From an uncultured Verrucomicrobiota bacterium (GTDB lineage Bacteria; Verrucomicrobiota; Kiritimatiellia; CAYTQP01; CAYXEW01), in assembly GCA_964464115.1 (NCBI GenBank), contig CAYXEW010000005.1, positions 1 to 51,306 of the forward strand: a DNA stretch of 51,306 bases, in the 5' to 3' direction. The notes beneath the pieces were generated by a model. That model was not told the DNA's origin, searched no databases, and was given only the letters and a program-made list of their open reading frames with translations. Below are positions 16,002 through 50,808 of the stretch, piece by piece. The position numbers and the translations under genes were made by a program. Numbering within the stretch: position 1 is the first letter of the stretch; each line of letters begins with the position of its first letter.

Positions 16002-16807
16002 TCTTTTCCAGATGGCTCTACGCCGTAATGATGTAAGCCGTCCACGACCCCAGCGGTATACTTTTGCGGACTGAAGTAGAGGTGAAGCGGAGCCCCTTTT
16101 TGGGTGGATGCCGCTTTCAGCTTTTGTTGAACCCATGCCGGTGTATTGGCGACGATGACAGCCTTATAGCCACTCATAAAAGCGGGGAGATCGTTGCCGG
16201 AGTCGCCGGCGTAGATCATTTTTTCAGGAGCCAGTTCAGTTATCTTCAGCAGATAGTGAAGCGCAAAATCTTTGGCGACCCCGACAGGCAGGATGTCAAT
16301 GAGGCCGATGTCCTTTTTGGAGTCGATACTGAAAATCACATTCCCGTGGATCGTGTGTCTTGCCAATACGGGCTCGATGAGCTGCTTTACGTCATCGCGG
16401 CTCAAACGGGCATCGCAGTAGAAGCTTGCCTTGAAGGGGGCCTGGCATTCTCTTTCCTGTGGTCTTACGTCTTTGCTGTCTTCAAAAGCAGACAAGACAT
16501 CATCCCCCCGGTGACCGCCCATACGTTTTTCCAGCAGGTCCTGGTAGGCTTCATCGTTTTGCCAGGTTCCCTTACTACGTGTATAAACGCTGGTACCCAC
16601 ATCACAAACACAGTAGTCCGGTTCCGGAAGCTGCCATTCCCCCACGCCTTGAAGGGCTAGCTCCAGCCGCCGCCCCGTCACGTAGGCTATAGCCATGTGA
16701 CAACGCCGCTTCAGTTCATGCAGCTGTTCGATGGCTTTTCGATAGGACGCTGCATCATCCAGCGGAATAACCGTTCCATCCATATCACTGGCGAGTAAAT
16801 AATTCAT
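15980..16807 (-). CDS. HAD-IIB family phosphatase, sucrose-6F-phosphate phosphohydrolase-like
   Basis: LLASDMDGTVIP (DxDxT nucleophile motif), ILPVGVAKDFALHYLL and IYAGDSGNDLPAF. It is divergent from the fructokinase/SPS/SuSy operon. Its 3' end overlaps the protease 3' end by 22 nt (convergent). Confidence 0.8.
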   Translation of the reverse strand: MNYLLASDMDGTVIPLDDAASYRKAIEQLHELKRRCHMAIAYVTGRRLELALQGVGEWQLPEPDYCVCDVGTSVYTRSKGTWQNDEAYQDLLEKRMGGHRGDDVLSAFEDSKDVRPQERECQAPFKASFYCDARLSRDDVKQLIEPVLARHTIHGNVIFSIDSKKDIGLIDILPVGVAKDFALHYLLKITELAPEKMIYAGDSGNDLPAFMSGYKAVIVANTPAWVQQKLKAASTQKGAPLHLYFSPQKYTAGVVDGLHHYGVEPSGKDYSSSTL

Positions 16808-16816
16808 GGCGATCCC

Positions 16817-16844
16817 TTGACTACACTAGCTGAAACTCTATTCT
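16817..16844 (+). promoter_or_regulatory. Candidate sigma70-like promoter of the sucrose operon
   Basis: TTGACT (16817-16822), a 16-nt spacer, then TATTCT (16839-16844), about 35 nt upstream of the fructokinase ATG. This is a pattern match only. Confidence 0.2.
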
Positions 16845-16879
16845 TAAATCGTTGCTGAAATTATAGTAAAGCTCATTGT

Positions 16880-17791
16880 ATGCTCGAAAATAAAGAAAAA
16901 AACAGGGTGCTCATCGTTGGGGAAGTACTGTTTGACTGCTTTTCAGACGGGCGCAAAGTGCTTGGTGGCGCTCCTTTTAATGTGGCTTGGCACCTAAAGG
17001 GAATGGGACTCGATCCCTTTTTTGCGAGTCGGGTCGGGGACGATGATCCCGGTCGTGAAATCCTGTTCCAGATGGAAAAGTGGGGTTTGGACCGCACCGG
17101 AATGCAGGAGGATGGTACGCGCCCGACCGGTCGCGTCGACGTCATCGAGCGGGGGAACGGTCATACCTTTGATATCGTTCGGGACTGCGCATACGATTGT
17201 ATGGATGCCGCGGCTGTTCTCAACACGATGCCGCCGCAGCCAGCGCTCCTTTACCACGGGTCACTGGCCTTTCGTTTTGAGCACAATCGGAACGTATTGC
17301 GGCAGCTGCGCGATGCTTGCGATGCTCCGGTATTCTGCGACATCAATCTTAGGGAACCCTGGTGGGAGCCCGAACACACAGCGCAGTTGCTGCGGGCTGC
17401 CTCTTACGTAAAACTGAACGATGAGGAGCTGGATATCCTCTCAGACGATGCGGTGGATACAACGGCCGATCTGGATGCGAAGGCCGCCCGTTTCTGCGAG
17501 CGATATGATCTCCAGTGGCTGATTGTTACCCGCGGAGCCGGTGGGGCGCTGCTCGTTGATCGCGAACATGGAATATGCAGGCATGATTTATCTCCGAATT
17601 CCACACCACCGGTCGATACAGTGGGGGCGGGTGATGCGTTTACGGCTGTTGTCATACGAGGTTTAACAGAAGGTGTTTTCGGTGCGCCGCTGTTGGCGGC
17701 CGCTTCGACACTGGCTTCTCGCATCTGTTCGATCCGGGGGGCGACCACGTTCGATTGGTCGCTTTACAAAGGGGTGTTGAACAATGAGTGA
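16880..17791 (+). CDS. PfkB-family carbohydrate kinase, probable fructokinase
   Basis: VLIVGEVLFDCF..GGAPFNVAWHLKGMG and DTVGAGDAFTAVVIRGL. It overlaps the SPS start by 8 nt. Confidence 0.85.
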   Translation: MLENKEKNRVLIVGEVLFDCFSDGRKVLGGAPFNVAWHLKGMGLDPFFASRVGDDDPGREILFQMEKWGLDRTGMQEDGTRPTGRVDVIERGNGHTFDIVRDCAYDCMDAAAVLNTMPPQPALLYHGSLAFRFEHNRNVLRQLRDACDAPVFCDINLREPWWEPEHTAQLLRAASYVKLNDEELDILSDDAVDTTADLDAKAARFCERYDLQWLIVTRGAGGALLVDREHGICRHDLSPNSTPPVDTVGAGDAFTAVVIRGLTEGVFGAPLLAAASTLASRICSIRGATTFDWSLYKGVLNNE

Positions 17792-19952
17792 AAAACGCTA
17801 TATAGCTATGTTCAGTGTGCACGGTCTCCTGCGCGGGTTCGATATGGAGCTGGGGCGTGATTCCGACACCGGCGGCCAGATTACCTATGTGGTCGAGTTG
17901 GCCCGGGCACTGCATGAGTGTGAGAGTGTCGGCCGCGTCGATCTATTTACGCGAAAAATCATCGATAAGAATATAGACGCCAGCTACAGCGTAGAACGGG
18001 AACCGCTGACGGACCGGGTGACCATCGTACGGATCCCATGCGGCCCCCGCCGCTATCTGAGAAAGGAAAGTCTGTGGCCGTATCTGCCGGGGTTTGTAGA
18101 CAATACGCTACAGTATTTTCGCAGCCGCCGCCGTGTGCCGGATATCATTCACGGACATTATGCAGACGCCGGCTATGTCGGGGGGCAGCTCGCCCGACTG
18201 CTGGGCGTGCCCTTTGTGTTCACAGGACACAGCCTCGGCAGAGTCAAGCGTGAGCGTATGGAGAAAAAAGGTGCCCGGATGGAGGTGGCCGATCGCAAGT
18301 TTAACTTTCCGCGCCGCATCGAAGCAGAAGAATTTGCTCTGGAAACGGCTTCACTGGTGGTGGCCAGTACCCGCCAGGAAGTGCGCGAGCAGTACGAAGT
18401 GTACCACCATTACAACCCTCACCGCATGCGGGTTATAGCGCCCGGCGTCGACCTCAAGCGGTTTTATCCTCCCGAGGGTCCGGTGAAAACGCGCATGAGC
18501 GAAGAATTGAAGCGTTTTTTGAAAGACCCTGAAAAGCCCATGATTCTGGCGATGGCCCGTCCCGATGATCGTAAGAATATAGCGACGCTGGTGCGTGCTT
18601 ATGCGGAAGATAAACAGCTCAGAGAATGGGCCAACCTGGTGCTGATCCTGGGCAGCCGTGATGATATTCAGAAAATGGAGCATTCGGCGCGGCGGGTCCT
18701 GGCTAATTTGTTTTATCTGTTCGATTTTTACGACTTGTACGGGTCCGTGGCTTTTCCCAAGAGCCATGCCGCTGAAGAAGTCCCGGACATCTACCGGTTG
18801 GGCACCGCTAGCAAAGGTGTTTTTGTAAATCCCGCCCTGACGGAGCCTTTTGGGCTGACGCTGATTGAAGCGGCGGCCTCGGGTATGCCGATTGTCGCCA
18901 CCAATAACGGCGGGCCCAATGATATCATCGAAACGCTGGACAATGGACTGTTGGTCGATCCACTTGACGGCGGCGCCATTGCTGCCGCCCTAAAAAAAAT
19001 TGTGTCAGACAGCGGGGCCTGGCAGACCTATTCCGAAAATGGTGTGGAGCGCTCCCGAACGGCCTACTCATGGAAGGCTCATGTCGATACATACATCGAC
19101 CGCCTGAATACGGTTTTTGAAGAAGAGGGGGAAAAGACAGCCGTAGTGCCTTCGCATCGGAGCCGCCTGCCCACGATCGACCGCGTCGTGGTGACGGATG
19201 TCGATAATACGCTGACAGGGGATGATGAAGGAACAGCCGCCTTTTTGAAAGCCCTCAGCGATGCGGGTGAGTTTACGGCCTTCGGTATTGCCACCGGAAG
19301 GAGCAAAGAGAGCGCGCTTGAAGCGCTGAACGAAGCGGGGGCCCCGGTGCCGGATATTATGATCACGTCCGCCGGCGCCGCGATTTATTACGGCGAAAAA
19401 TTGACGCCTGACGTGAGCTGGGAAAAGCACATTCATTACCGTTGGTATCCCGACTCCATACGCAATGCTCTGGATAAGTTACCGGGGCTGTACCCCCAGC
19501 CAAAGGAACAGCAGCATCCCTACAAATTGAGCTATACGATCAACCTCGAGGAATCCCCGCCGATCCACCGCGTCCGCAAATATCTTCGCGAGTGTGAGTT
19601 GCGGGCCAAAGTCATCTTTTCACTCGGTATGTATCTCGATATAATGCCGATCCGCGCGTCGACAGGCCTCGCCATTCGATACCTGGCATTCAAGTGGGGA
19701 CTTTCGCCGGATCATCTATTGGTGGCCGGTGACTCCGGTAATGATGAGGAGATGCTGGACGGACATACGCTAGGTGTGGTCGTCGGCAACTACAGTAGCG
19801 AACTTGAAAAACTGCGCGGTCGTCCCCGCATCTATTTTACTGAAGCCTGTCACGCCTGGGGCATTCTCGAAGGTATTCAACATTATAATTTTTTTGGTGA
19901 AATTAACATCCCTGTAAAAGACGAGGTATCCAATGAAACAGAATCTACTTGA
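17784..19952 (+). CDS. Sucrose-phosphate synthase with C-terminal SPP-like HAD domain
   Basis: IAMFSVHGLLRGFDMELGRDSDTGGQITYVVELARAL and the GT-B C-terminal motif EPFGLTLIEAAASGMPIVATNNGGP. The C-terminal HAD domain has VVVTDVDNTLTG, ATGRS and VAGDSGNDEEML. Length 722 aa. Confidence 0.93.
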   Translation: MSEKRYIAMFSVHGLLRGFDMELGRDSDTGGQITYVVELARALHECESVGRVDLFTRKIIDKNIDASYSVEREPLTDRVTIVRIPCGPRRYLRKESLWPYLPGFVDNTLQYFRSRRRVPDIIHGHYADAGYVGGQLARLLGVPFVFTGHSLGRVKRERMEKKGARMEVADRKFNFPRRIEAEEFALETASLVVASTRQEVREQYEVYHHYNPHRMRVIAPGVDLKRFYPPEGPVKTRMSEELKRFLKDPEKPMILAMARPDDRKNIATLVRAYAEDKQLREWANLVLILGSRDDIQKMEHSARRVLANLFYLFDFYDLYGSVAFPKSHAAEEVPDIYRLGTASKGVFVNPALTEPFGLTLIEAAASGMPIVATNNGGPNDIIETLDNGLLVDPLDGGAIAAALKKIVSDSGAWQTYSENGVERSRTAYSWKAHVDTYIDRLNTVFEEEGEKTAVVPSHRSRLPTIDRVVVTDVDNTLTGDDEGTAAFLKALSDAGEFTAFGIATGRSKESALEALNEAGAPVPDIMITSAGAAIYYGEKLTPDVSWEKHIHYRWYPDSIRNALDKLPGLYPQPKEQQHPYKLSYTINLEESPPIHRVRKYLRECELRAKVIFSLGMYLDIMPIRASTGLAIRYLAFKWGLSPDHLLVAGDSGNDEEMLDGHTLGVVVGNYSSELEKLRGRPRIYFTEACHAWGILEGIQHYNFFGEINIPVKDEVSNETEST

Positions 19953-22314
19953 GTATTCACTGCAGCATAAACCGGCTGTCTACCTATTCCTGAAACAGTG
20001 TGTGGAGGCCCATCGCGCATTTCTGCTCAAATCCGATTTGGTGGATATACTGGAGAACTGTAAAGAAAAGGATGGCGGAGCCGCCCTCAAAACATCGGTG
20101 TTTGAACAGGCCATCTACCATGCGGAAGAGGCCGCGGTTCAAGAGGGGTGGGTTTATCTTTCGGTCCGCTGGGATGTGGCCCATTGGGCCTACTGGCGCT
20201 TCCAGGTAGATCAGATTCTCTGCCAGGAGGTCTCGCCCACCGATTTCCTGGTGTTCAAGGAAAGCATTGTCGAAACGAAACAGCCGGATGATGCATGGGA
20301 CCTAGAGCTGGATGTGTCACCGTTCAAGCGCAATCTGCCGATGTTGCGACAGACTCGTTCCATCGGCCATGGGGTCGAATTTATGAACCGTCACCTGGCG
20401 AGGACCATGACAGATGCAAAAATGGAAGGGTTGCTTGAATTTCTCAAGGTGCATCAGTACCGCGATGTGCAGTTGCTGCTTAATGATCGCGTAAAAGACC
20501 TCGATATGCTGCAACAGGCCCTGCGTGATGCGCGAAACGTGATAAAGAAAATCGACCCCGCGACAGAGTGGTCGGATTTCGCCGGACAGTTGCCAAACAA
20601 CTGCTTTGAAGCCGGGTGGGGGCGGACGGCGGCCGGCGTGGTCGAGATGATGACGCTACTGCTCGACTTGATGGAGTCTCCCAGCAACAGTCTCCTCGAA
20701 GAATTTCTGTCCAGAATACCCATGATTTCCAAGCTGGCAGTCCTTTCCCCGCACGGATATTTCGGGCAATCCAATGTGCTGGGATTGCCGGACACCGGCG
20801 GACAGGTTGTGTACATCCTGGACCAGGTGCGCGCACTGGAAAAGCAGATGTGTGAAGACCTGTACCGCCAGGGTCTGGATGTCGATCCAAAAATTATTAT
20901 CGTGACGCGCCTGATTCCCGATGCGGGGGATACGACCTGTAACCAGCGCATCGAACCGATTCTCGGAACCAATCATACGTATATCCTGCGCGTACCGTTT
21001 CGGTATGAAAACGGGGAAGTGGTGTCGCACTGGATATCGCGTTTTGAAATTTGGCCGTTTCTGGAGCGCTACGCCCGCGACGTGCAGATCGAACTGCTCG
21101 GCGAACTGGGCGGTAAACCCGACCTGATTATCGGCAATTATTCTGACGGCAATCTGGTTGCGACACTGTTGTCCAGACAGTTGAATGTCACGCAATGCAC
21201 TATTGCTCATGCTCTGGAAAAGACCAAATACCTGTACTCCGCCCTGCACTGGAAAGAACACGAAGAGCAGTACCATTTCGCATGCCAGTTTACCGCTGAT
21301 TTGCTGGCTATGAATCATGCTGACTTCATCATAACCAGCACCTATCAGGAAATAGCCGGAACGGATGAAAGTGTCGGCCAGTATGAAAGTTATATGTCGT
21401 TTACCATGCCCGGTCTCTATCGCGTTTTAAACGGTGTGAATATCTATGATCCAAAATTTAATATTGTCAGCCCGGGGGCGGATGAAGAGGTCTACTTCCC
21501 GTATTTTGAACATGACCGCCGCCTGGTAAACCTGCATGATGATATACATGAAGTACTCTATGGACCGCCTCATGAAGGGGCGCGCGGACAGCTTACGGAC
21601 GCGGAAAAACCGTTGCTCTTCGTCATGTCGCGCATGGATTCTATCAAAAATGTGGCGGGTGTTGTGCAGTGGTATGCGGAAAACGAGGCACTGCAGGATG
21701 CGGCCTGTCTTTTTCTCGTCTCCGGCAAGGTGGACCCCGCCACCTCCAGTGATGCCGAAGAGCAGGCGCAGGCTCGCCTCATCCATCAGTTGATGGATGA
21801 ACACGGGCTGGATGATAAGGTCCGCTGGGTCAATTCGATGTCGGACCGTAATTTCAACGGTGAAATGTACCGTGTTGTTGCCGATAAAAAAGGCGCGTTT
21901 ATTCAGCCGGCGCTTTTTGAGGCCTTTGGTTTGACAGTGATCGAAGCCATGAGTTCCGGGCTCCCCGTGTTTGCAACCTGTTATGGAGGTCCGCTGGAAA
22001 TCATTGAGAACGGCGTTTCGGGTTTTCATATCGACCCAAATCGGGGGCAGGAGGCCGCGGAGATGATGGTCTCTTTTTATGAGGCTTGCCGTCAGGATTC
22101 GACCCACTGGGATACGATATCCCGGGGCGCCCTGAAGCGCGTAGAGGAGGCTTACACCTGGCGCCTTTATGCCAATCGACTTTTGACGCTGTCACGCATC
22201 TATGGCTTCTGGAAGCATATGTCCAATGTGGAATCAGAGCCGGTGGGGCGTTATCTGCAGATGTTCTACAGCTTGATGTATCGCCGCCTGGCTCAATCAG
22301 TGCCGGAAAAATAG
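19933..22314 (+). CDS. Sucrose synthase
   Basis: LSPHGYFGQSNVLGLPDTGGQVVYILDQVRALE, GNYSDGNLVA and EAFGLTVIEAMSSGLPVFATCYGGPLEII. Length 793 aa. It overlaps the SPS 3' end by 20 nt. Confidence 0.95.
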   Translation: MKQNLLEYSLQHKPAVYLFLKQCVEAHRAFLLKSDLVDILENCKEKDGGAALKTSVFEQAIYHAEEAAVQEGWVYLSVRWDVAHWAYWRFQVDQILCQEVSPTDFLVFKESIVETKQPDDAWDLELDVSPFKRNLPMLRQTRSIGHGVEFMNRHLARTMTDAKMEGLLEFLKVHQYRDVQLLLNDRVKDLDMLQQALRDARNVIKKIDPATEWSDFAGQLPNNCFEAGWGRTAAGVVEMMTLLLDLMESPSNSLLEEFLSRIPMISKLAVLSPHGYFGQSNVLGLPDTGGQVVYILDQVRALEKQMCEDLYRQGLDVDPKIIIVTRLIPDAGDTTCNQRIEPILGTNHTYILRVPFRYENGEVVSHWISRFEIWPFLERYARDVQIELLGELGGKPDLIIGNYSDGNLVATLLSRQLNVTQCTIAHALEKTKYLYSALHWKEHEEQYHFACQFTADLLAMNHADFIITSTYQEIAGTDESVGQYESYMSFTMPGLYRVLNGVNIYDPKFNIVSPGADEEVYFPYFEHDRRLVNLHDDIHEVLYGPPHEGARGQLTDAEKPLLFVMSRMDSIKNVAGVVQWYAENEALQDAACLFLVSGKVDPATSSDAEEQAQARLIHQLMDEHGLDDKVRWVNSMSDRNFNGEMYRVVADKKGAFIQPALFEAFGLTVIEAMSSGLPVFATCYGGPLEIIENGVSGFHIDPNRGQEAAEMMVSFYEACRQDSTHWDTISRGALKRVEEAYTWRLYANRLLTLSRIYGFWKHMSNVESEPVGRYLQMFYSLMYRRLAQSVPEK

Positions 22315-22550
22315 AAGAGCGCATGGTTACCTATCGGACGTTTGATCCGAAAAGGGGATGACTTTCAATGGTAGTTTGAATAAAAAGGGCTCATCCTGTC
22401 AATCATGAGGCCGCTTAAACTGAAAACAATTCCATAACAATACGCTATTAATAAGCTAACAATCGGGTCTCTATACTGGACGGCATAGAAATAGAAAGGC
22501 CTGTGTGTATACCAGGCTTCGCCCATTGTTTGAAAAAAACTGATTTCGCA

Positions 22551-25358
22551 ATGAAACGCCGAAAAAAAAGTATAGTGTGGCTCGTTGTGGCCCTCTGCTC
22601 GTCGTTGTACACGGCGGGTGCCGAGTACGACCTGGCGCCGCAGGACTTATACACAGCCGGGCTCGCGAAGTTCAGCGAGGGTGACTATATCGGCGCCCTT
22701 TCCTATTTTGAGACACTGGTCAACAAGTTTGGTGAAGAAGCTGAATTGCGCGAATCCCTCGAGCGCGTTCATTATGCGATGGGCTGCTGTTACTTCAATA
22801 ACGGCGATATGGAGGGGGCGGCTGAAGCCTTTGGTCGCTACATGAAAGAATATCCCAAAGCACGGTTCTACGACGAAGCGCTCTTCCGCGTCGGCTCCGC
22901 CTATCAGAACCTGGAAAATTATGATAAGGCCATCGACTATTTTCAGCGGTTGGAAGTAGACTTTCCGACGTCGCCGTTTACAGAGGACGGCCTCTTTCAG
23001 GTGGGACTCTGCCATACCTTTAAAGAAGACCATGAGCAGGCCGTGCAGAGTTATAAAAAATTTATTCGCTACTATCCCTCTTCCGATTTGGCACCGCATG
23101 CGTCTGTCCTGCTGGGACGTTCTTACCTGTCGCTGGGCACCTGGCGTGACGCGCTGGAAATTATCAAAGATGTGCGCGTCGAGTGGCAGTCGGCGGATTA
23201 TAAGGCACAGCTCAACTTTCTCGCCATGGAGATCGGGGATATTGCCTTCGACGAAACGGAGTATGACCTGGCCCTGCAGGCCTACCGGCGCGTACGTACT
23301 AAAGAACATTTGATTCGCACCCAGCGCGAATGGATGGACCTGCTGCAGCGCCGCCTCTCCTATATTAACCGCCAACGCATAGATCCCAAGACCATCAATG
23401 AGCATTTTCGCCTGAAACGCCGTATTCAGAGCTCCCTTTCCAGGGCGGGGAACACCCTGGATGAGTTGATTGAATCACCCAATCATGATGCCCTGCTCTA
23501 TCACCGCATCGGCCGATGCTTCTTTAATAATGAACGCTATTGGGAGGCGCGCGTGGCCTTTACCCGCGTGGTCGAAGACGCGGTCACCGAGGATGTCCGG
23601 GAGTCCGGCATGTTTGACCTCGTTATGGTGCTCGCCAGACAGCGGAAATTCCCCAAAACGATTGCCCAGGCCGACGTCTACCTCTCCGAATACGGCGAGG
23701 TTCAGAAATACATTGATAACAACCGAGTGCCGACGATTGGGTACATCCGGGCGGAAGCGTTTATCAATGACGAGCGGTTTGAAGAAGCGGAACCGGCCCT
23801 GCGCGATCTGATGAATCGGTTCCCCGAGCACAACCAACTGGCACGCATTGAGTTTTACCTGGCACTGTCTCTAGCCATGCAGGAGCAGTTTGCTGAATCT
23901 ATTGAGATGTTTGAGCGCTGGTTGCGTGACTATCCGAACCATATCATGCATTCCGATGTTCGCTATTGGCTCGCAGTGGCTCTCTATTACAGCGGCAATC
24001 ATGGCGCGGCCCTGCCGCGTTTTGTAGACTATGCGAATCAGAATCCGCTGTCGATCTATACGCCGGAGGCCGAATATCGCTCGGCCATGTGTATGTATTC
24101 GCTGGAGCAGTTTCAGCATGCTGCGGACACGCTGGAATCCTGGTTGCGGAGTTATCCCGACCATCACTTTGTATACGAAGCCCTCATCACGCGCGGTGAT
24201 GCGCTGGCGGCGATCGGCAAACTCGAAGAGGCTCGTGCGAGTTATCTGGAGGTGTCCCCGCTGGCCGGCCCTTATTATTACATGTCACTGCAACGCTGTG
24301 CTAAAGTGTACAAAGCCCTGGATGACCCCTTCTACTATAAAGAAATGGCGGCCATCTTTGAGCAGTTTATACACGAGCATCCGGATTCCCTGAACGTCGT
24401 GGATGCCGCCTATCAGGCGGGCTCCGCCCTGCGCCAGATTAATGAAATCGAGCGCGCCCGGAAACTCTACTGGGATAGTATTGAGCGGTATGGAAACCGA
24501 ACCGACTGGGAAGGGTTTACACCGCTGTTTGATGATTTGCGCCACCTCTACGGTGGTGATGCTGTGAGGGAGCTGGAACGACTCATCGAGAACGCCTACC
24601 GCGATGCCTACGCCGAAGGACTTTTCACTCTGGCGGTCCGCTACAAGTGGGCGCTGGCTCGTCTCAAGCCACTGGAAGGGGATGAGTTGGTGGCCGTGAA
24701 TGAAATCGAATCCAGGTTTGATAAGGAGCATATGGGGGCTGAAGAACTGGTAGCCATTTCGGAGACGCTGTTGGCGGCTGATCAGCGCGCCCGCGCCCGC
24801 CCTTATTACGAATACGTTTACAAAACCTTTCCGAAATCCCGCTATCTGGCGCTCGCCCTGATTAGAATGGCGGAAGATGCCCTGGCTGAAGAAAATGTGG
24901 AAACAGCCTTTGCGCTGGTCGATAATGCGCTTCAGCGGGCGATGGACCCCGAAGCACTGATAAGGGGGGTCTATGTGCGCGCCCGTTGCCTCCATGCCTT
25001 GGAGCGTTATGAGGATGCCATCCATGATTACACACAAATTTTGGCTCACCGCACAGCGCCGCGCCCTATGAAGCCCGAGGCCATGCTCGGCATTGCCGAC
25101 TGTTATGAAAAAAATGGCGAGCTGACCAAAGCGGTTCCTTATTACCAGCGCATTTATGTGCTCTATGGAGCCTTTAGCGATGCCGTTGCCAAGGCCTACT
25201 GGCGCAGCGGACAGGCGTTTGAAGAGATGAATGATTACACCGCAGCATCCCGGACGTATAGAGAAATGGTGGCGAACGAAGCACTGGCGGAGTATCCGGA
25301 GTTTGAAAAGGCCAAAGCCCGCCTGGCAGAATTGGGGGAGGCTGTTGATGCCGGTTAA
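22551..25358 (+). CDS. Large secreted TPR-repeat protein (YbgF/BamD-like TPR units)
   Basis: I place the start at ATG 22551 (MKRRKKSIVWLVVALCSSLYTAGA, signal peptide). The track ORF opens at GTG 22503. Repeated units resemble ..ALFRVGSAYQNLENYDKAIDYFQRLEVDFPTSPF... Confidence 0.85.
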   Translation: MKRRKKSIVWLVVALCSSLYTAGAEYDLAPQDLYTAGLAKFSEGDYIGALSYFETLVNKFGEEAELRESLERVHYAMGCCYFNNGDMEGAAEAFGRYMKEYPKARFYDEALFRVGSAYQNLENYDKAIDYFQRLEVDFPTSPFTEDGLFQVGLCHTFKEDHEQAVQSYKKFIRYYPSSDLAPHASVLLGRSYLSLGTWRDALEIIKDVRVEWQSADYKAQLNFLAMEIGDIAFDETEYDLALQAYRRVRTKEHLIRTQREWMDLLQRRLSYINRQRIDPKTINEHFRLKRRIQSSLSRAGNTLDELIESPNHDALLYHRIGRCFFNNERYWEARVAFTRVVEDAVTEDVRESGMFDLVMVLARQRKFPKTIAQADVYLSEYGEVQKYIDNNRVPTIGYIRAEAFINDERFEEAEPALRDLMNRFPEHNQLARIEFYLALSLAMQEQFAESIEMFERWLRDYPNHIMHSDVRYWLAVALYYSGNHGAALPRFVDYANQNPLSIYTPEAEYRSAMCMYSLEQFQHAADTLESWLRSYPDHHFVYEALITRGDALAAIGKLEEARASYLEVSPLAGPYYYMSLQRCAKVYKALDDPFYYKEMAAIFEQFIHEHPDSLNVVDAAYQAGSALRQINEIERARKLYWDSIERYGNRTDWEGFTPLFDDLRHLYGGDAVRELERLIENAYRDAYAEGLFTLAVRYKWALARLKPLEGDELVAVNEIESRFDKEHMGAEELVAISETLLAADQRARARPYYEYVYKTFPKSRYLALALIRMAEDALAEENVETAFALVDNALQRAMDPEALIRGVYVRARCLHALERYEDAIHDYTQILAHRTAPRPMKPEAMLGIADCYEKNGELTKAVPYYQRIYVLYGAFSDAVAKAYWRSGQAFEEMNDYTAASRTYREMVANEALAEYPEFEKAKARLAELGEAVDAG

Positions 25359-26268
25359 GCATGTCAGGACGCGGTGGGTACTGCTGGCAGGGCTGGTGCT
25401 GTTTGCCTGTGGTTCTTTTGCTCAGGATCGTGCGGACGGTCTCGGCCCCTTTACCATGCTGACCCGGCAAGGTGAGGTGACGGTCAAATTACTTCGCATG
25501 GACGATGATCTGGTCTGGATACTGCGCGAGATCAGTGCTGGCGATTGGCTGGAGACAGCAGTGGAAACGCGCGAAATTATAACCGTTCAGATGGAGCGGC
25601 CCACTGTTTTGAAAGCATTGGATGAAGAAGATGTCGAGCTCGATCCGGTGAAGGTGCATGTTTCGCTCAAGGAGCTGGTGGAGGGTCACGCCCCCTTCAA
25701 AACGCTTTCCGGCATGTATTACTATGAAGCCGCTTTTAAGAAGGCAATGCTGTACGAAAAGGGTGAAGACTGGAAGCGGGCACTGGCGCTTTACGAGCGT
25801 ATTTACCCTGATGAAGAAGCCCGCGAATGGGCCGATAAAGCGCGTGTTCATGCCGGTCTCTGTTATGCCAAAATGGGTGATGGAATCAAGGCACTGGATT
25901 TGATTGATCTGGATGCACTCAATGAAGACGACATAAAGCTGCTGTCGGATGGATACTATGCAGTGGGTAACGCCTTGTTTGAAAGCGGGCAGTACGAAGA
26001 AGCCCTGATGCATTATTTATATCTGGTTGTGTTTTATCCGTTTGTTGAAAACAATGAAATACGCTGCCTTTCGGCTTCACTCAGTTGTTATGAAAAAATG
26101 GAAGACTGGCCGGCCCTCGCCAAAGGTTTTACAGCTTTGCGCAGTCACTATCCCGAGACGCCTGAAACGGCTAAAGCGGAGGCGTGGATGTGGAAATATG
26201 AAGAACAGCTGGCCAATGAGGCCAATTTCAGTATTAAGGTTCTGGAAGGGGCCGCGACAGACGAATAA
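25348..26268 (+). CDS. Secreted or lipoprotein TPR-like protein
   Basis: I place the start at ATG 25348 (MPVKHVRTRWVLLAGLVLFACGS, signal peptide with a possible lipobox LFAC), which overlaps the upstream stop by 11 nt. The 39 extra codons in the track ORF (from 25231) lie inside the previous gene. Confidence 0.8.
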   Translation: MPVKHVRTRWVLLAGLVLFACGSFAQDRADGLGPFTMLTRQGEVTVKLLRMDDDLVWILREISAGDWLETAVETREIITVQMERPTVLKALDEEDVELDPVKVHVSLKELVEGHAPFKTLSGMYYYEAAFKKAMLYEKGEDWKRALALYERIYPDEEAREWADKARVHAGLCYAKMGDGIKALDLIDLDALNEDDIKLLSDGYYAVGNALFESGQYEEALMHYLYLVVFYPFVENNEIRCLSASLSCYEKMEDWPALAKGFTALRSHYPETPETAKAEAWMWKYEEQLANEANFSIKVLEGAATDE

Positions 26269-26316
26269 GGTGTTTTGCAGTTTATACAAGTAATTAGAAA
26301 GTGAGGAAAAATTAGT

Positions 26317-27075
26317 ATGATGAAACTGAATAAAGTGTGGAGCGTGATACTGCTATGTGTGTTCACGGTAATGGTGTGCGCCGTATTTGCACAGGAAGGC
26401 GGTGAAGCCGCTGCCGAAGCAGAGCAGAAACTATCCCTGTATGATCTCATTTCCCAGGGCGGTTGGGCGATGATTCCCCTCGGACTCTGTTCGTTGTTGC
26501 TGGTGTCTATGATTATTATGAATGCCAGACAGGTCAGCCAGAAAAAACTGATACCGGAAGAAGTTGTCGCTGACATTCATGCTTCCTCAAAAATGCAGGA
26601 CTTCGGTGCTGTTTGGAACAAAGTAAATGCGGTCGACTGCTTTTTTACACGGGGCCTGAAAGCGGGCCTACGCCACGTCAATGTGGATGACGTGGCTTCC
26701 TCTGTTCCACGCATGGAAGAGGCCATCGGCGAAGCTGTAAGCCGCGAAGAAGCCCAGATATCGTTTTGGATAAATTTTCTATCCCTGATTGCGGGTGTGG
26801 CACCGATGATCGGTCTGCTGGGTACGGTTTCCGGTATGATTGGAGCCTTTCAGCAGATTGCCTCCGGCGGTATGGGTAAGCCGGAGCTGTTGGCTGGCGA
26901 TATTGGTGAAGCGCTCATTACGACTGCGACCGGCCTGACAATTGCCATTCCTGCCGTATTCAGTTACTTCCTCTTTAGAAATATGCTGGGCCGTGTACTG
27001 GCCAGAGCGGAGGAGGAATACTCTATGGTTATGGATGAACTTGCGGGTACCGGAATTGTCGAAATGGAAGAGTAG
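26317..27075 (+). CDS. exbB: MotA/TolQ/ExbB proton-channel family protein
   Basis: LIAGVAPMIGLLGTVSGMIGAFQ and GDIGEALITTATGLTIAIPAVFSYFLFRN. It has an N-terminal signal-like helix plus 3 TM segments. Confidence 0.9.
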   Translation: MMKLNKVWSVILLCVFTVMVCAVFAQEGGEAAAEAEQKLSLYDLISQGGWAMIPLGLCSLLLVSMIIMNARQVSQKKLIPEEVVADIHASSKMQDFGAVWNKVNAVDCFFTRGLKAGLRHVNVDDVASSVPRMEEAIGEAVSREEAQISFWINFLSLIAGVAPMIGLLGTVSGMIGAFQQIASGGMGKPELLAGDIGEALITTATGLTIAIPAVFSYFLFRNMLGRVLARAEEEYSMVMDELAGTGIVEMEE

Positions 27076-27173
27076 ACAGATGACACTTCTCATGGGTGGT
27101 GGTGTTTCTGCACACGCTTAAGAACGCCGTTGAAACGCTGCCTTCCAGAGAATCGTGAATAAGATTTGTTCAT

Positions 27174-27632
27174 ATGAAATTAAAGCGTAAATCTAATATC
27201 GATGCCGAAGTCGACATGACACCCATGATTGACATGGTGTTTCTGTTGCTGGTCTTTTTCATGTGTGCGGCCACGATGTCAAAGGTGGATTTTACTCCTG
27301 AAATCAAGTTACCGATTGCCCCGAAAGCGGATGTGCCCGAGGATTTGCGGAATCGCGGCACCATTAATATCCTGCCGGTGGGCTTCATTACCGTCGACGG
27401 GGAAGAGGTTACGGAAGACAAGCCCTTTATGGTGTCGGGCAGTCTCGTCACGGCAGGTGACCTTGTAAAAATTATCGAAGAGCGCCGGACGGAAGATCCG
27501 GATGTCCGCGTATACATGCGGGTTGATCGCAATGTAGAATATTCACGGGTACAGGAAGCGATCAAGGCGGCCGCTGCCGGTGGAGTGTATGATATTATTT
27601 TCGCCTCTTACCAAAGTAAGGGTGGAGAGTAA
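27174..27632 (+). CDS. exbD: ExbD/TolR family biopolymer transport protein (copy 1)
   Basis: MKLKRKSNIDAEVDMTPMIDMVFLLLVFFM followed by a periplasmic domain ..VRVYMRVDRNVEYSRVQEAIKAAAAGG... Confidence 0.9.
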   Translation: MKLKRKSNIDAEVDMTPMIDMVFLLLVFFMCAATMSKVDFTPEIKLPIAPKADVPEDLRNRGTINILPVGFITVDGEEVTEDKPFMVSGSLVTAGDLVKIIEERRTEDPDVRVYMRVDRNVEYSRVQEAIKAAAAGGVYDIIFASYQSKGGE

Positions 27633-27662
27633 TGCTGAAAGCTGAAAGTGGAATGTTAAGTT

Positions 27663-28106
27663 TTGAAAATTAAGCGTAAAACATCTGATGATAAAGTGGA
27701 AATTGCGATCACACCGATGATCGATTGCGTATTTCTGTTGCTCATTTTCTTTATGGTCACATCGACGCTGCACCGGCAAGAGGCCGATATCAGCTTTGCC
27801 CTGCCGGGAGTGGCAGAGCAGTCAGACTCCGTGGACATCCCGGATGAACAGGTTATACAAATATCGCCGGAAGGTCGAGTTGCGCTGAATGATTTGGAAT
27901 ACGATACCCCCGAAGAGCCGGCCCTGCCGGAACTCACAGAAATGCTGACTCGCTTTAAAGCGACGGCGGAAGCCAACAAAGTAGAAGCGATGATCACCAT
28001 AGCGCCGGCCCTGACGGTCAAGCATCAGCGCATAGTCGACGTGCTCAACGCCTGTGCCGCCGCCAGAATAGAAAATGTGACGTTTGCGGTGGAGGAGGAA
28101 ATGTAA
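27663..28106 (+). CDS. exbD: ExbD/TolR family biopolymer transport protein (copy 2, TTG start)
   Basis: (TTG)KIKRKTSDDKVEIAITPMIDCVFLLLIFFMV is parallel to copy 1, and there is no in-frame ATG before the TM segment. ..ITIAPALTVKHQRIVDVLNACAAAR... Confidence 0.85.
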   Translation: MKIKRKTSDDKVEIAITPMIDCVFLLLIFFMVTSTLHRQEADISFALPGVAEQSDSVDIPDEQVIQISPEGRVALNDLEYDTPEEPALPELTEMLTRFKATAEANKVEAMITIAPALTVKHQRIVDVLNACAAARIENVTFAVEEEM

Positions 28107-29113
28107 TGGTTAAAAAAGCTGCCAAAACGCTTCCCCTCGTGAGCCTGATTACCAGTATCGTTGTGCATGCTATACTCGTGTCCGGCGCCGCTTACGTAAC
28201 GGTGCTGGTGGTGCAGGGTCGTCAAAAAGTGATGTTTGAAGCCAAGAAGACGCCGTCGATTCCTCCCAAAAAACTGGAACATACGATTCGCGTCAAGCAG
28301 ATGCAGCAGCAGGCCCGCAAACCGCAGTTGCTTTCCCGCCTGGCGGCCAATACGGCTTCCAAGGTGGCCCTGCCTGAAATTCCGGATCTGGCCCCGCCCG
28401 AGAAGAAAGATATGCGGGATCAGTGGATGGCGCAGCAGATTGCCGGAGATGCGCTGGGTAATGCCGGTGCTGGTGGAAAAGGGGCCGGCCGCGGTCTTAC
28501 GGGTTCGGGCGGATACTCCGACACTAAATTTTTCGGAGAGAATATCAGGACTCGCGCGATTGCTGTTCTCTTTGATGTGACGAGTACGGTATTTGATTCT
28601 GGGGCCATGGAGTATGCCCAGGAAGAGACGGCCCGCCTATTGAACTCGCTCAACCCGGCTACCAAGTTTACGACTATAGCCTTTACGGATGGGGCCCATC
28701 CCTTTTCCAGCAATATGGTGTTTGGACTGCAGAGCCGGAAGGAAGAAGTTATTCAGTGGGTCAAAGCCCTTAAAATGAATCAGCGCAATGCAAGTGATCC
28801 GCGTTACACCGGTTCGACTCCTTTTGAAAGTATTAAGCTGGCGGCCGAGTTGGGGGCTGAAACCATCTTTATTGTAACGGACGGCGACTTGCCTTATATC
28901 GCCCCCCGCGGGGAATATAAGAATAACGAGGTTAAGGGTCACCGTGAGGAAATGCTGCGATTTGCAAAGACCTTGGAAGTGAGTTTCGCGCGACCCATTA
29001 AAATCTATCCAGTGCTATGCTATCCGAAAGCCGACAAAGAATTTGATGAGGCAAAGGATTTTTACAAGAAGCTGGCCAGGGCCACCGGTGGTCGTTTTAA
29101 AATCGTCGATTAA
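28106..29113 (+). CDS. TonB/TolA-like N-terminal anchor fused to a vWA-like domain
   Basis: The TM helix LVSLITSIVVHAILVSGAAYV carries an S-x3-H motif. It is followed by a Lys/Pro-containing linker, a Gly-rich linker (GNAGAGGKGAGRGLTGSGG), and a C-terminal alpha/beta domain with AVLFDVTSTV (MIDAS-like D-x-T-x-T) and IFIVTDGDLPY. The ATG shares one base with the ExbD2 stop. Confidence 0.75.
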   Translation: MVKKAAKTLPLVSLITSIVVHAILVSGAAYVTVLVVQGRQKVMFEAKKTPSIPPKKLEHTIRVKQMQQQARKPQLLSRLAANTASKVALPEIPDLAPPEKKDMRDQWMAQQIAGDALGNAGAGGKGAGRGLTGSGGYSDTKFFGENIRTRAIAVLFDVTSTVFDSGAMEYAQEETARLLNSLNPATKFTTIAFTDGAHPFSSNMVFGLQSRKEEVIQWVKALKMNQRNASDPRYTGSTPFESIKLAAELGAETIFIVTDGDLPYIAPRGEYKNNEVKGHREEMLRFAKTLEVSFARPIKIYPVLCYPKADKEFDEAKDFYKKLARATGGRFKIVD

Positions 29114-29141
29114 TCGGTTGAGCATTTTGAATCAGCACAAT

Positions 29142-29235
29142 GGAGGGCGGACTTCCACGTCCGCCGAAAAGGTTGTGCGGGAGCACAACCCTCCAAGGTT
29201 CGCCGAAAAGGTTGTTCTGAACAGAACCCGTTCGC
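29142..29235 (+). other. Tandem stem-loop / direct-repeat element between the exb-vWA operon and glyA
   Basis: Hairpin GGCGGAC-TTCCAC-GTCCGCC (29146-29165) and hairpin GGTTGTGC-GGGA-GCACAACC (29171-29190) are both enclosed by GGAGGG (29142-29147) / CCCTCC (29189-29194). An exact 15-nt direct repeat CGCCGAAAAGGTTGT occurs at 29162-29176 and 29201-29215. A weaker third hairpin follows, then a T-run (about 29240-29249). Confidence 0.5.
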
Positions 29236-29324
29236 AATGTTTGTTTTTTGATTGTCCTTTTCATATACTTTCGGTTGAATGCATACATATTTCCATTTGA
29301 AGAAGCTGTATACTGGAGGCTGTT

Positions 29325-30851
29325 ATGATTAATGCTGTGCGTAATTACCTGAACGAAGTGCCGTCCGGAGATATAAATCCGGGTATGCTGGCCTACGTGG
29401 CCAGTTTGACCAAGGTGGCCGAGATATTCCCTGAGATTGCCGCATCGATCGTCAAAGAATTAGAGGATCAGCGCAGTTACCTGAAACTCATTGCCAGCGA
29501 AAACTACTGTTCTTTATCAACCCAGTTAGCGATGGGCAACCTGCTGACGGATAAGTATGCAGAGGGGTTTGCCAATCACCGGTTTTATGCTGGATGTGAT
29601 AATGTGGATGTGATTGAAACCCTCGCCTGCGAAGAGGCGAAAAAGCTGTTTGGTGCAGAGCATGCCTATGTGCAGGGACACAGTGGCGCGGATGCCAATC
29701 TGATTGCCTATTGGGCCATCCTGAGCACGCGTGTGCAGACACCGCTTCTCAAAGAACTGGGAGAAAAAAATCCCTCAAAACTTTCCCGCGAGCAGTGGGA
29801 ACGTATTCGTGGACAGACGGGTAATCAGAAACTGTTGGCGCTGGACTATTATTCAGGCGGCCACCTTACACACGGGTACCGGCATAATGTGTCAGCTCAG
29901 ATGTTTGATGCGCACAGTTATGCTGTCTCCGAAAAAGACGGGTTGCTCGACTATGATCAAATTGAAAAGCAGGCCATGGACCTCAAACCACTTATTCTGC
30001 TGGCGGGATACTCGGCTTATCCCCGGAAAATCAATTTTGCACGAATGCGCGAAATTGCGGATAAGGCGGGTTCGGTATTTATGGTGGATATGGCTCATTT
30101 TGCGGGGCTGGTGGCAGGCAAGGTGTTTACCGGTGAATTTGACCCGGTAAAACATGCCCATATTTGTACGGCCACCACGCACAAAACACTGCGGGGCCCG
30201 CGTGGCGGGCTCGTTTTATGCAAGGAGGAGTTTGCCGAAGACGTCAACAAAGGATGCCCACTTGTTATCGGTGGGCCGCTTCCGCATGTGATTGCGGCCA
30301 AAGCGGTAGCTTTTAAAGAAGCTAACCGTCCAGCTTTCCGCGAGTATTCGGCCCAGATTGTCAAAAATTCATCTGCTCTGGCTGAGGCCTGTGTGAGCGA
30401 AGGGCTTGATGTCGTGACGGGCGGGACCGACAACCATCTACTTTTGATCGATGTGCGACCGCTCAATATTACCGGCCGCCAAGCTGAAAGTGTAATGCGG
30501 GAGTGCGGTATAACACTGAATAGAAATTCGCTTCCATTCGATTCAAACGGCCCTTGGTACACCAGCGGGTTGCGCATCGGGACCCCTGCCGTTACAACCC
30601 TGGGGATGAAAGAAGATCAAATGCGGGAAATTGCTTCCATTATAAAAAGAGTGCTGGTGGAAACCAAAGCGGCTGCAATCAAATCCGGACCGAACGAGGG
30701 CGGAATCAGCAAGGCCAAATATCATATTGAAGACGATGCCCGGGATGAAGCTATGGCGCGGGTGAAAAACCTTCTCAAAAAGTTTCCCGTTTACCCGGAG
30801 CTGGATTTAGAGTTTCTCAAAGAACACTTCCAGAATATCGATGTTGGCTAA
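29325..30851 (+). CDS. glyA: Serine hydroxymethyltransferase (long form)
   Basis: LKLIASENY, TDKYAEGF..RFYAGC, GGHLTHG and the PLP lysine motif TTHKTLRGPRGG. GGAGG lies 6 nt upstream of the ATG. Length 508 aa, against about 417 aa in E. coli. Confidence 0.95.
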   Translation: MINAVRNYLNEVPSGDINPGMLAYVASLTKVAEIFPEIAASIVKELEDQRSYLKLIASENYCSLSTQLAMGNLLTDKYAEGFANHRFYAGCDNVDVIETLACEEAKKLFGAEHAYVQGHSGADANLIAYWAILSTRVQTPLLKELGEKNPSKLSREQWERIRGQTGNQKLLALDYYSGGHLTHGYRHNVSAQMFDAHSYAVSEKDGLLDYDQIEKQAMDLKPLILLAGYSAYPRKINFARMREIADKAGSVFMVDMAHFAGLVAGKVFTGEFDPVKHAHICTATTHKTLRGPRGGLVLCKEEFAEDVNKGCPLVIGGPLPHVIAAKAVAFKEANRPAFREYSAQIVKNSSALAEACVSEGLDVVTGGTDNHLLLIDVRPLNITGRQAESVMRECGITLNRNSLPFDSNGPWYTSGLRIGTPAVTTLGMKEDQMREIASIIKRVLVETKAAAIKSGPNEGGISKAKYHIEDDARDEAMARVKNLLKKFPVYPELDLEFLKEHFQNIDVG

Positions 30852-49775: not shown

Positions 49776-49799
49776 CCGAAAATAAGAGGAGAGAAAAAA

Positions 49800-49988
49800 A
49801 TGAAAGTTAAAATTGATGCCGATTCCTGCACAGGTTGCGAACTGTGTGTAGATACATGTCCTGAAGTATTCGAAATGGCTGATGACGTGGCTGTTGCTAA
49901 AGCAGCTGAAGTCCCGGCTGATGTAGAAGAATCTGCCCGCGAAGCAGCTGAAAGCTGCCCGGTCGAATGCATTGAAATAGAAGATTAA
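49800..49988 (+). CDS. Small single-cluster ferredoxin
   Basis: 62 aa with CTGCELCVDTCP plus a distal CPVECI. It starts 24 nt after the DHOD-like gene, with GAGGAG upstream. Confidence 0.9.
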   Translation: MKVKIDADSCTGCELCVDTCPEVFEMADDVAVAKAAEVPADVEESAREAAESCPVECIEIED

Positions 49989-50015
49989 AAGGAAACCCCT
50001 TTTTTTCATGAAAAG

Positions 50016-50041
50016 CGCGGTCAAGTGACCGCGTTTTTTTT
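50016..50041 (+). terminator. Rho-independent terminator of the PFOR/DHOD-like/ferredoxin operon
   Basis: CGCGGTC (50016-50022), loop AAGT, GACCGCG (50027-50033), followed by eight T (50034-50041). An A-run precedes the stem. Confidence 0.8.
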
Positions 50042-50147
50042 GGTTCCCGTTAGATTCAGGGGGGCAGGTCCTTACTGACAGCCTTTCGTGAATCTTTTTT
50101 TTGACGTAAAACCATTACCGCTCGAAAACCAACGGGTAAAATTTAAA

Positions 50148-50234
50148 ATTGTAGGGCTGGAACGGTCGCAGACCTTCCAGCCGCACCTCCATCGACAACG
50201 GCGCGAAGGCTTGCAGCCATTGGTGCCCTACAAT
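50148..50234. repeat. Nested palindromic element in a non-coding region
   Basis: A 10-bp perfect inverted repeat ATTGTAGGGC (50148-50157) / GCCCTACAAT (50225-50234) encloses a strong hairpin GGCTGGAA-C-GGTC-GCA-GACC-TTCCAGCC (50155-50182). Confidence 0.45.
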
Positions 50235-50461
50235 GCGATCCACCATTTTGTAGCGTCCGGCGAATTACCAGAAGAGCGGGAATATATGCCGGCAAAAAGC
50301 GCGAAGGGGGGTGAAATGTTTTCTTGTGTTTAGCGGGGGGACCTCTTCGGCCAATTCTCAACACCATTTCCAAGCTGGGACAATCCGCACCGTCCCAGCA
50401 TCAGTATTGATGACTTCTTCCTGTCGTTATGGCGTTTTTTATGAATAATACAGGTTACAGA

Positions 50462-50623
50462 ATGAAAAGATCCCAAAACCCCGAAAAAATTTGTCCGGTA
50501 TGCGGCCGGCCGTTTGTATGGCGGCGCAAGTGGAAACTAAACTGGCAGAACGTTATTTATTGCAGTGAACGATGCAGGAGAACCCGAAAGACTCCGGCCT
50601 CGTCTGGTTCACAACAAACCTGA
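50462..50623 (+). CDS. DUF2256 zinc-ribbon protein
   Basis: KICPVCGRPFVWRRKWKLNWQNVIYCSERCR matches the DUF2256 signature as I recall it. The start is probably ATG 50462 (MKRSQNPEK); the track ORF opens at 50429. Confidence 0.7.
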   Translation: MKRSQNPEKICPVCGRPFVWRRKWKLNWQNVIYCSERCRRTRKTPASSGSQQT

Positions 50624-50808
50624 GAGTGAACGACAAGATGGCGCTTTTTCGCGCGGTGCAGGATCATCATCGGATTGCCGCGGTGGTTTGTTTTGACCCT
50701 CACCGCCCACGGAGTAACTTAATTTTTCATTTTACGGGAGAGCCCGCGGCCTCGCGGGCAAGTTCTGTGTGCGGACGCCGGCCCCCAGTATCTCAATGCT
50801 ATAAATGA
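50572..50808 (+). pseudogene. Truncated cryptochrome/photolyase-family gene (N-terminal ~45 codons only)
   Basis: GLVWFTTNLRVNDKMALFRAVQDHHRIAAVVCFDP is the typical photolyase N-terminal motif (VWFRxDLRxxDNxAL...DP). After about 50705 the frame carries no photolyase-like sequence and runs into repeats. Confidence 0.55.

Follow-up and report, generated by a model that had tools for sequence, protein, structure and literature searches.

An operon pairing a TolQ/ExbB-type motor and two ExbD/TolR paralogs with a predicted vWA force transducer in an uncultured Kiritimatiellia bacterium

The Ton and Tol systems are the only well-understood means of energy delivery to the diderm outer membrane, and both share one kind of C-terminal head. 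Williams-Jones et al. (Mol Biol Evol 2025, msaf138; PMC12204202) described a further class, the "vWA force transducers" (vWA, von Willebrand factor A), encoded downstream of TPR-tolQ-tolR-tolR genes (TPR, tetratricopeptide repeat) in bacteria of the Planctomycetes-Verrucomicrobia-Chlamydiae (PVC) group. These proteins are tethered to the inner membrane and possess an SHLS-type helix in which a His is conserved, a motor-box linker and a vWA C-terminal domain; the class was defined from genome analysis, and no deletion phenotypes were reported (PMC12204202). Its type example, Tichowtungia aerotolerans (Kiritimatiellota), was chosen since it has no recognisable TolA or TonB (PMC12204202), and harbours two tandem transducers of 476 and 474 aa (supplementary information, SI, of PMC12204202). 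A 2026 review of Ton/Tol motors cites this work but omits the vWA proteins (PMC12905483), and a literature text search revealed no other paper combining these terms. Here we describe a six-gene operon of this kind, located at 22551-29113 on the + strand of a 51,306-nt stretch (hereafter the window) of contig CAYXEW010000005.1, from an uncultured bacterium of the Kiritimatiellia.

The operon is very probably a divergent member of the vWA force transducer class and a proton-motive-force envelope machine. Five out of the five features that define the class, namely the helix, the linker box, the vWA fold, the gene context and homology to Tichowtungia, were found in the protein or operon of the window. 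Alignment of the window family profile with the first Tichowtungia transducer in hhalign gave a probability of 98.9% and an E value of 1.8e-17 over 230 aligned columns, covering the helix and the box as well as two thirds of the vWA domain; the Tichowtungia sequence came from a transcription of the SI of the paper, in which one or two residues were lost in conversion. The original prediction, made from the sequence of the window, knew of no characterised example of such a machine. This holds at the experimental level, but not for the architecture, which was already known from the 2025 genome analysis (PMC12204202); the novelty implied by that prediction is therefore largely gone, and what is left is modest.

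The six consecutive open reading frames (ORFs), read directly from the sequence, lie at the coordinates given in the original prediction and follow the order TPR1, TPR2, TolQ/ExbB-type channel, ExbD1, ExbD2 and a 335-aa vWA protein. They form one operon, as had been proposed. The ATG of TPR2 (25348-25350) precedes the TAA of TPR1 (25356-25358), giving an 11-nt overlap with GGGGGAGG upstream. At the junction between ExbD2 and the vWA gene, stop and start share one base in TAATG (28104-28108), with GGAGGAGG upstream. Both predicted junctions were thus present in the sequence, and the membrane-anchored vWA protein expected in the tonB/tolA slot is translationally coupled to the motor genes. A mechanical ORF list starts TPR1 earlier, at GTG 22503, and TPR2 at ATG 25231; the ATG starts of the original prediction match the signal peptides and the homolog N-termini better. 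The window had also been said to lack a TonB C-terminal domain, TolB and Pal, and the search of its substantial ORFs against Pfam and NCBIfam detected no TonB_C, TolA, TolB, Pal/OmpA or TonB-dependent receptor domain.

The vWA force transducer (28106..29113, + strand, 335 aa) is composed of a TonB/TolA-like N-terminal anchor, a conserved linker and a C-terminal vWA domain. A database search with this protein recovered 187 homolog clusters, all of them unnamed proteins, the best being 49% identical; the sources were metagenome-assembled genomes (MAGs) labelled as Kiritimatiellia, Verrucomicrobia or Lentisphaerae. An AlphaFold2 (AF2) model was built on an alignment with 36 homologs, and conservation was counted over 120 close homologs, with 140 distant representatives for the metal ion-dependent adhesion site (MIDAS). 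In the model, the helix at residues 9-37 and an alpha/beta domain at about 138-335 are confident, and the linker between them is of low confidence.

The protein possesses a single N-terminal hydrophobic helix, the transmembrane helix at 28130..28216 (residues 9-37, LVSLITSIVVHAILVSGAAYVTVLVV), which contains no Asp. Along this helix runs the pattern S17-x3-H21-x6-A28-x3-T32, with the spacing of the SHLS motif of TonB and TolA (Ser-X3-His-X6-Leu-X3-Ser), in which the Ser and His contact ExbB/TolQ transmembrane helix 1 (TM1) in E. coli cryo-electron microscopy structures (PMC12215075). S17 is present in 114 out of 120 homologs, and H21, A28 and T32 in all 120. The helix of the transducer therefore carries the Ser/His face that TonB and TolA use to dock outside the ExbB/TolQ pentamer. 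This face is evidence beyond that given in the original prediction.

Following the helix, the post-membrane box (28217..28345, residues 38-80) reads K-x-MFE-x-KK...KLEH-x-IRVKQ...RKPQ, and 37% of its positions are at least 98% invariant. Its invariant residues 41-74 align with the Tichowtungia region called the stator box in the SI of PMC12204202. The D-box of TonB and the R-box of TolA, which bind ExbD and TolR, sit 10-15 residues after the helix (PMC12905483), so the position of the post-membrane box fits that of a D-box or R-box, and binding of ExbD by this box is a plausible assignment. The linker as a whole (residues 38-137) comprises about 100 residues, is rich in K, Q, R and G and contains 8 Pro. 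A Gly-rich segment with an FFG motif (28457..28555, residues 118-150) is the most conserved stretch of the protein, with 52% of positions at least 98% invariant, and leads into the vWA fold; strands 138-149 are modelled within the vWA domain. In the vWA core 11% of positions reach the same level of invariance. The linker segments of the transducer are thus more conserved (37-52%) than the core of its head (11%), a feature new relative to the published class. The stretch 28217-28555 (residues 38-150) combines the highest conservation with very low AF2 confidence.

The C-terminal domain (28517..29110, residues 138-335) was modelled with a predicted local distance difference test (pLDDT) score mostly of 75-95 and with a complete MIDAS. 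Among the top 50 Foldseek matches of the model in the PDB, vWA domains lead, among them ITIH1 (3.5e-7), the CLCA1 VWA domain, Cav alpha2delta, vWF A1/A3 and integrin I domains. The family profile matches the vWA region of ITIH4 at 3.9e-4, and VWA_3 is matched by 21 out of the 36 homologs. The MIDAS consists of D157-x-T159-x-T161 (nt 28574-28588), T238 and D259/D261; the positions D157, S/T159, S/T161, T/S238 and D259/D261 are kept in 120 out of 120 close homologs, and the D-x-S-x-S part in about 133 out of 140 distant representatives. Because of the Foldseek fold, the ITIH4 profile match, the VWA_3 homologs and the conserved MIDAS, the domain is predicted to be a metal-binding vWA domain, and not TonB_C or TolA domain III, as had been anticipated. 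Searching the six proteins with hmmscan, a check proposed in the original prediction, recovered the TPR, MotA_ExbB and ExbD families, but no VWA match for the 335-aa protein itself, which matched no Pfam family (E up to 10) and no NCBIfam family. This search alone could therefore not confirm the vWA assignment; the fold and the homologs did.

The motor part of the operon comprises, as had been predicted, an ExbB/TolQ-like channel and two distinct ExbD/TolR paralogs. The TolQ/ExbB-type channel (26317..27075, + strand) matches PF01618 MotA_ExbB at 3.8e-28 and has three transmembrane segments. Its best NCBIfam match is TolQ, with 86.6 bits against a cutoff of 221, and its best matches in the PDB are TolQ (8odt, 1.8e-11) and then ExbB (5sv0, 1.5e-9). 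Residues T170, E198 and T203 align with T145, E173 and T178 of E. coli TolQ. In TM1 the family conserves W50 and S60, and not the Ser-x3-Trp of E. coli ExbB/TolQ. The N-terminus of the channel (26317-26391) resembles a cleavable signal peptide (…CAVFA|QEGGE) and stands before the first membrane helix; "long" ExbBs described in Serratia (PMC9008036) likewise begin with such a segment.

ExbD1 (27174..27632, + strand, 152 aa) matches PF02472 ExbD at 7e-19, and ExbD2 (27663..28106, + strand, 147 aa, TTG start) at 7e-22. Both paralogs retain a transmembrane Asp21 (nt 27234-27236 and 27723-27725, respectively), aligned with the Asp of Serratia ExbD or E. coli TolR. The best PDB match of ExbD1 is Serratia ExbD (7ajq_F), with TPMID opposite TPFID, and that of ExbD2 is E. 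coli TolR (9ddm_Y). The TolR NCBIfam scores of the two paralogs, 49.9 and 57.4 bits, fall short of the cutoff of 127. By tblastn, ExbD1 orthologs are 50-70% identical across genomes and ExbD2 orthologs 61-78%, whereas ExbD1 and ExbD2 are 25-55%, mostly about 30%, identical to each other. This difference points to an old, maintained heterodimer.

The CpoB/YbgF-like TPR component is expanded to about 1240 aa over two proteins, in agreement with the original prediction. TPR1 (22551..25358, + strand, 935 aa) has a signal peptide at about residues 1-24 and CpoB/YbgF- and BamD-like repeats. Many TPR families of Pfam match it, TPR_6 at 4e-46, and YfiO/BamD-like profiles match as well. Against TIGR02795 tol_pal_ybgF it scores 206 bits (cutoff 90), a value summed over six stretches of the 935-aa protein. 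TPR1 orthologs, 39-47% identical by tblastn, were found in 38 loci. Many relatives possess two genes in place of the 935-aa TPR1, of about 400 and 800 aa (e.g. L002:3749-4951 and the next gene); the former matches TPR1 residues 1-381, and the latter residues 393-929 plus an extra N-terminal part. The one-gene and two-gene forms of TPR1 represent gene fusion or fission within the operon.

TPR2 (25348..26268, + strand, 306 aa) is a secreted protein with weak TPR matches. It consists of a conserved N-terminal domain of about 80 aa and unknown type, with the pattern G-x-GPF...VRLLRRD...VW, and a C-terminal TPR region. Since the two TPR proteins and their homologs carry type-I signal peptides ending in AxA|Q, both are probably soluble periplasmic proteins; this apparent location is new relative to the published class. 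A lipoprotein nature was considered for TPR2, on account of LFAC in the window signal peptide, and rejected because the Cys is not conserved and the homologs end in AxA|Q. For TPR1 it was rejected on the same grounds, the homologs having AxA|Q and no lipobox.

A scan of one genome per species yielded 53 related loci, all in PVC-type MAGs, on which synteny was scored by tblastn of the window proteins. The order TPR1-TPR2-ExbB-ExbD1-ExbD2-vWA is the same in 38 out of the 53 loci, so the association of the six genes exceeds chance, and the predicted conservation of gene order across relatives is borne out. Three loci (L010, L041 and L043) possess ExbB-ExbD-ExbD-vWA with no TPR match upstream, and the remaining 12 are interrupted by contig ends. 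In every related locus that extends far enough upstream for this to be seen, ExbD2 is located upstream of the vWA gene. Nearly all of the related genomes recovered showed one operon locus each, and the genes downstream of the operon are not conserved among relatives. Clustering of the ORFs over the 53 loci revealed no seventh component; all that it recovered were antisense shadow ORFs, a 23S_rRNA_IVP insertion and, in one clade, a nitrilase-family neighbour. A profile search of 1.84 billion representatives detected 1675 relatives at E <= 1e-3, many of them full length with helix, linker and vWA domain. The three distant relatives that were looked up all adjoin ExbD genes, and at one of them (L056) the whole layout is repeated, as TPR, a 299-aa protein, MotA_ExbB, ExbD, ExbD and vWA.

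The 23S_rRNA_IVP insertion is a small gene that encodes a 23S rRNA intervening-sequence protein (IVP; PF05635, 3e-15) of about 140 aa and is located in one clade between exbD2 and the vWA gene. It was found at L016:984-1409, L019:9433-9852, L020:89-535, L024:9469-9861, L032:9406-9849, L033:9382-9876, L034:2209-2652, L037:2456-2899 and L051:9466-9834, and it disrupts the tight exbD2-vWA coupling found in the window. Some of the loci bearing it also have similar-sized gaps between exbB and exbD1.

We propose the following mode of action. A heterodimeric ExbB5-ExbD1/ExbD2 stator would turn proton flow into rotation, and the periplasmic domains of the ExbD proteins would capture the invariant post-helix box, as happens to TonB's D-box and TolA's R-box. 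The linker of about 100 residues would then be pulled. Through its MIDAS metal, the vWA head would grip an acidic residue of a periplasmic or outer-membrane partner and pass tensile force to it. The probable ligand of the TPR proteins would be either the linker, with its unusual conservation, or the partner of the vWA head.

As to the physiological role, we tentatively favour, with low confidence, a Tol-like function in envelope maintenance or division, in a lineage with no TolA found so far. We favour it because the channel and ExbD2 lean to TolQ and TolR and the TPR proteins are CpoB-like, and also because Kiritimatiella glycovorans possesses tolB-pal and no recognisable TolA (SI of PMC12204202) and no TonB-dependent uptake genes were detected in it; Tichowtungia has no TolA or TonB (PMC12204202). 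A more specific version is possible and still more doubtful: the vWA transducer may be the missing TolA of Kiritimatiellota, with a TolQ-TolR1/TolR2 stator pulling a TPR-bound linker and a MIDAS clamp gripping TolB, Pal or another outer-membrane partner by an acidic residue. If this were true, a force-bearing, integrin-like catch would replace the beta-strand augmentation of every characterised TonB and TolA.

Several points weigh against these assignments. None of the vWA force transducers is backed by experiment (PMC12204202), and the 335-aa protein itself gave no family match in hmmscan. The linker, whose box would contact ExbD, has a pLDDT below 50 in the AF2 model. On the ExbB side, the TM1 Ser/Trp partners of the Ser/His face are not obviously in register, and their placement in the alignment is unreliable. 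The Tol-like assignment follows from weak preferences, because the TolQ and TolR matches are below cutoffs and the best PDB match of ExbD1 is ExbD. Pontiella, from the same phylum, reportedly has TonB-dependent transporter genes, so that import keeps some probability. No TolB, Pal or candidate outer-membrane partner was found near the operon, in the window and in the 53 related loci.

Among the alternatives, an unlikely one is that the vWA protein substitutes for TonB, its head binding TonB-dependent or analogous outer-membrane transporters and energising import, for example of polysaccharide fragments. The architecture equals that of exbB-exbD-exbD-tonB operons, the helix is TonB-like, and both the ExbD match of ExbD1 and the transporter genes reported in Pontiella agree with this explanation. 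However, no TonB-dependent receptor gene was found in the window or conserved near the operon among the 53 loci, and the co-encoded TPR proteins resemble CpoB, a component of Tol-Pal. The TonB box binds TonB_C by beta-strand augmentation, a binding mode that differs from MIDAS coordination. We infer for the machine a task other than the opening of TonB-dependent receptors.

Lower still stands a gliding or adhesion machine, a speculation of PMC12204202, in which the vWA protein would act in motor-driven surface motility in the manner of CglB. In Myxococcus, CglB is a vWA adhesin that operates together with the TolQR-like Agl motor (PMC12204202; see also PMC9946355), and vWA domains are adhesion modules. 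However, the window protein has an inner-membrane anchor and a linker no longer than about 100 residues, and it therefore cannot be surface-exposed. No Glt-like genes were found in the window or conserved nearby, and the operon lies among housekeeping genes. The idea is further weakened because the description of K. glycovorans is that of a non-motile coccus and motility was not observed in Pontiella agarivorans. Both TonB-type nutrient import and gliding seem less likely than the Tol-like role.

It is very improbable that the vWA gene is a coincidental neighbour, with the ExbBD proteins serving a canonical TonB or TolA from another locus and the 335-aa protein being an unrelated membrane vWA protein of the BatA/BatB kind. 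Bat operons, with BatA/BatB domains and MoxR ATPase and DUF58 neighbours, do combine membrane vWA and TPR proteins, and the 335-aa protein has no family match of its own. In other bacteria, tonB is often unlinked from exbBD (PMC12204202). Against this stand the TAATG stop/start overlap, the presence of ExbD2 upstream of the vWA gene in every judgeable related locus (several with the 23S_rRNA_IVP gene between them), the ExbD genes adjoining the distant relatives, and the SHLS spacing of the Ser/His/Ala/Thr helix face. The Bat signature was missing too, with no BatA, AAA/MoxR or DUF58 match in the operon or the window. An anti-phage defence system of the MotAB/Zorya type, with the proton-driven stator as sensor, is scarcely plausible: Zorya systems use MotAB-like stators and vWA domains are found in some conflict systems, but PADLOC gave no match for any of the six operon proteins, no nuclease or effector genes were found, and nearly all of the related genomes recovered have one copy of the operon, in a housekeeping context of uniform GC content. 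The scattered occurrence in islands that a defence system should show is not seen.

In the flanks of the operon, an AT-rich gap of 236 nt lies 5' of the first gene and contains a sigma-70-like promoter sequence (22448..22477, + strand, TTAATA-18-TATACT, 9 out of 12 consensus matches). This is weak evidence for a promoter, and the site is a candidate only, because promoter-like sites were no commoner in a consensus scan of the region than in shuffled sequence. Directly 3' of the vWA stop, nested GC-rich hairpins (29141..29195, + strand; minimum free energy -48.6 kcal/mol, z = -2.15) probably mark the end of the transcription unit, and a T-run follows beyond them near 29240. In the consensus terminator scan these hairpins are not a canonical intrinsic terminator, and the scan was not above the shuffled expectation. 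The Rfam search returned no match.

GC content is uniform over the whole window, whose remaining genes are chromosomal housekeeping genes, including those for sucrose synthesis, serine hydroxymethyltransferase (SHMT), phosphofructokinase, pyruvate:ferredoxin oxidoreductase and threonine synthase, among others. A complete sucrose cluster (15980-22314) stands directly upstream of the operon and encodes a sucrose-6-phosphate phosphatase (SPP; - strand), a PfkB sugar kinase, a sucrose-phosphate synthase fused to an SPP-like domain, and a sucrose synthase (TIGR02470, 1114 bits) whose gene overlaps that of the sucrose-phosphate synthase by 20 nt. The SHMT ORF at 29325-30851 is listed with 508 aa, about 90 aa beyond typical SHMTs, and its Pfam match falls in two stretches; the extra length may be an artefact of an upstream start or an insertion. 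Further genes include a 1729-aa subtilase with a lamin-tail domain (LTD) at 10812-16001 (Peptidase_S8 1.3e-48, LTD 3.3e-15).

At the left end of the window, an ORF on the - strand (65-532) corresponds to the C-terminal part of the Transposase_29 family (1.3e-29); it spans only profile positions 423-561 out of 562, and the gene therefore appears truncated. Near the other end, a stretch of 1.5 kb (49776-51306) holds only very small ORFs, among them a 62-aa ferredoxin-like gene (49800-49988). The same stretch contains a composite repeat at 50784-51042, present in two tandem copies about 139 nt apart, with a 78-nt part of 85% identity and a 40-nt hairpin-containing part of 98%. Searches of the repeat stretch gave no Rfam match and no tRNA match.

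Compared with known systems, the locus resembles the Agl-Glt machinery of Myxococcus xanthus in that a TolQR-type motor is functionally tied to a vWA-domain protein. However, CglB is an outer-membrane lipoprotein, the window protein an inner-membrane TonB-like transducer, and the many Glt components are absent in the window. The TolQ-only or transpore-helix vWA family (PMC12204202; Idiomarina) also couples a membrane-tethered vWA protein genetically to a TolQ-like channel. That family possesses no exbD/tolR and places the proton-binding Asp in the helix of the vWA protein, whereas the window operon has two ExbDs and a helix with Ser/His and no Asp.

With Tol-Pal the operon shares a channel and an ExbD2 whose nearest solved structures are TolQ and TolR, although their matches to TolQ/TolR are below the equivalog cutoffs. 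CpoB/YbgF-like TPR repeats in the same operon and a TolA-like helix face of the transducer are further likenesses. Unlike Tol-Pal, the operon has no TolA domain III and two TolR paralogs in place of one, its TPR component amounts to about 1240 aa in two proteins compared with the 263 aa of CpoB, and no tolB or pal was found in the window or the related loci. Similar to the Ton system (TonB-ExbB-ExbD), the operon possesses motor components of the 5:2 type, a transducer gene in the position of tonB, a single N-terminal helix with an S-x3-H face, and a conserved motif a few residues past the helix, in the place of the D-box. It differs from Ton in that the transducer has a predicted vWA fold and no TonB_C (PF03544), and in that no TonB-dependent receptor gene occurs in the 51-kb window or is conserved near related loci. 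The linker, in addition, is not proline-rich (8 Pro in 100 residues) and exceeds the head in conservation, whereas the spacers of TonB and TolA are variable.

The closest system is that of the Tichowtungia vWA transducers, from the same phylum-level group, with the same three-part protein encoded downstream of a gene for a TPR protein, a tolQ-like gene and two heterologous tolR-like genes. The window possesses one transducer of 335 aa, and Tichowtungia two in tandem, of 474-476 aa, which have a large C-terminal extension. The window also has two TPR genes that are translationally coupled, compared with one TPR gene in the published description of the class. The window family has the full MIDAS (D-x-S/T-x-S/T, T, D), whereas Tichowtungia has D-A-D/N-K-R/L and no later Thr and Asp. 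This contrast between an intact and a degenerate predicted MIDAS is new, and because the window family and its relatives keep the MIDAS, Tichowtungia is unrepresentative of the superfamily in this respect. If a vWA head is confirmed on the same motor that drives Ton and Tol, it would be a third, metal-dependent head type, with proton-driven force transduction rewired to another binding chemistry, in lineages with no TolA or TonB found so far. To this class the window adds a divergent member with several handles, namely an intact, invariant MIDAS, a linker conserved beyond the head, and two apparently soluble periplasmic TPR proteins.

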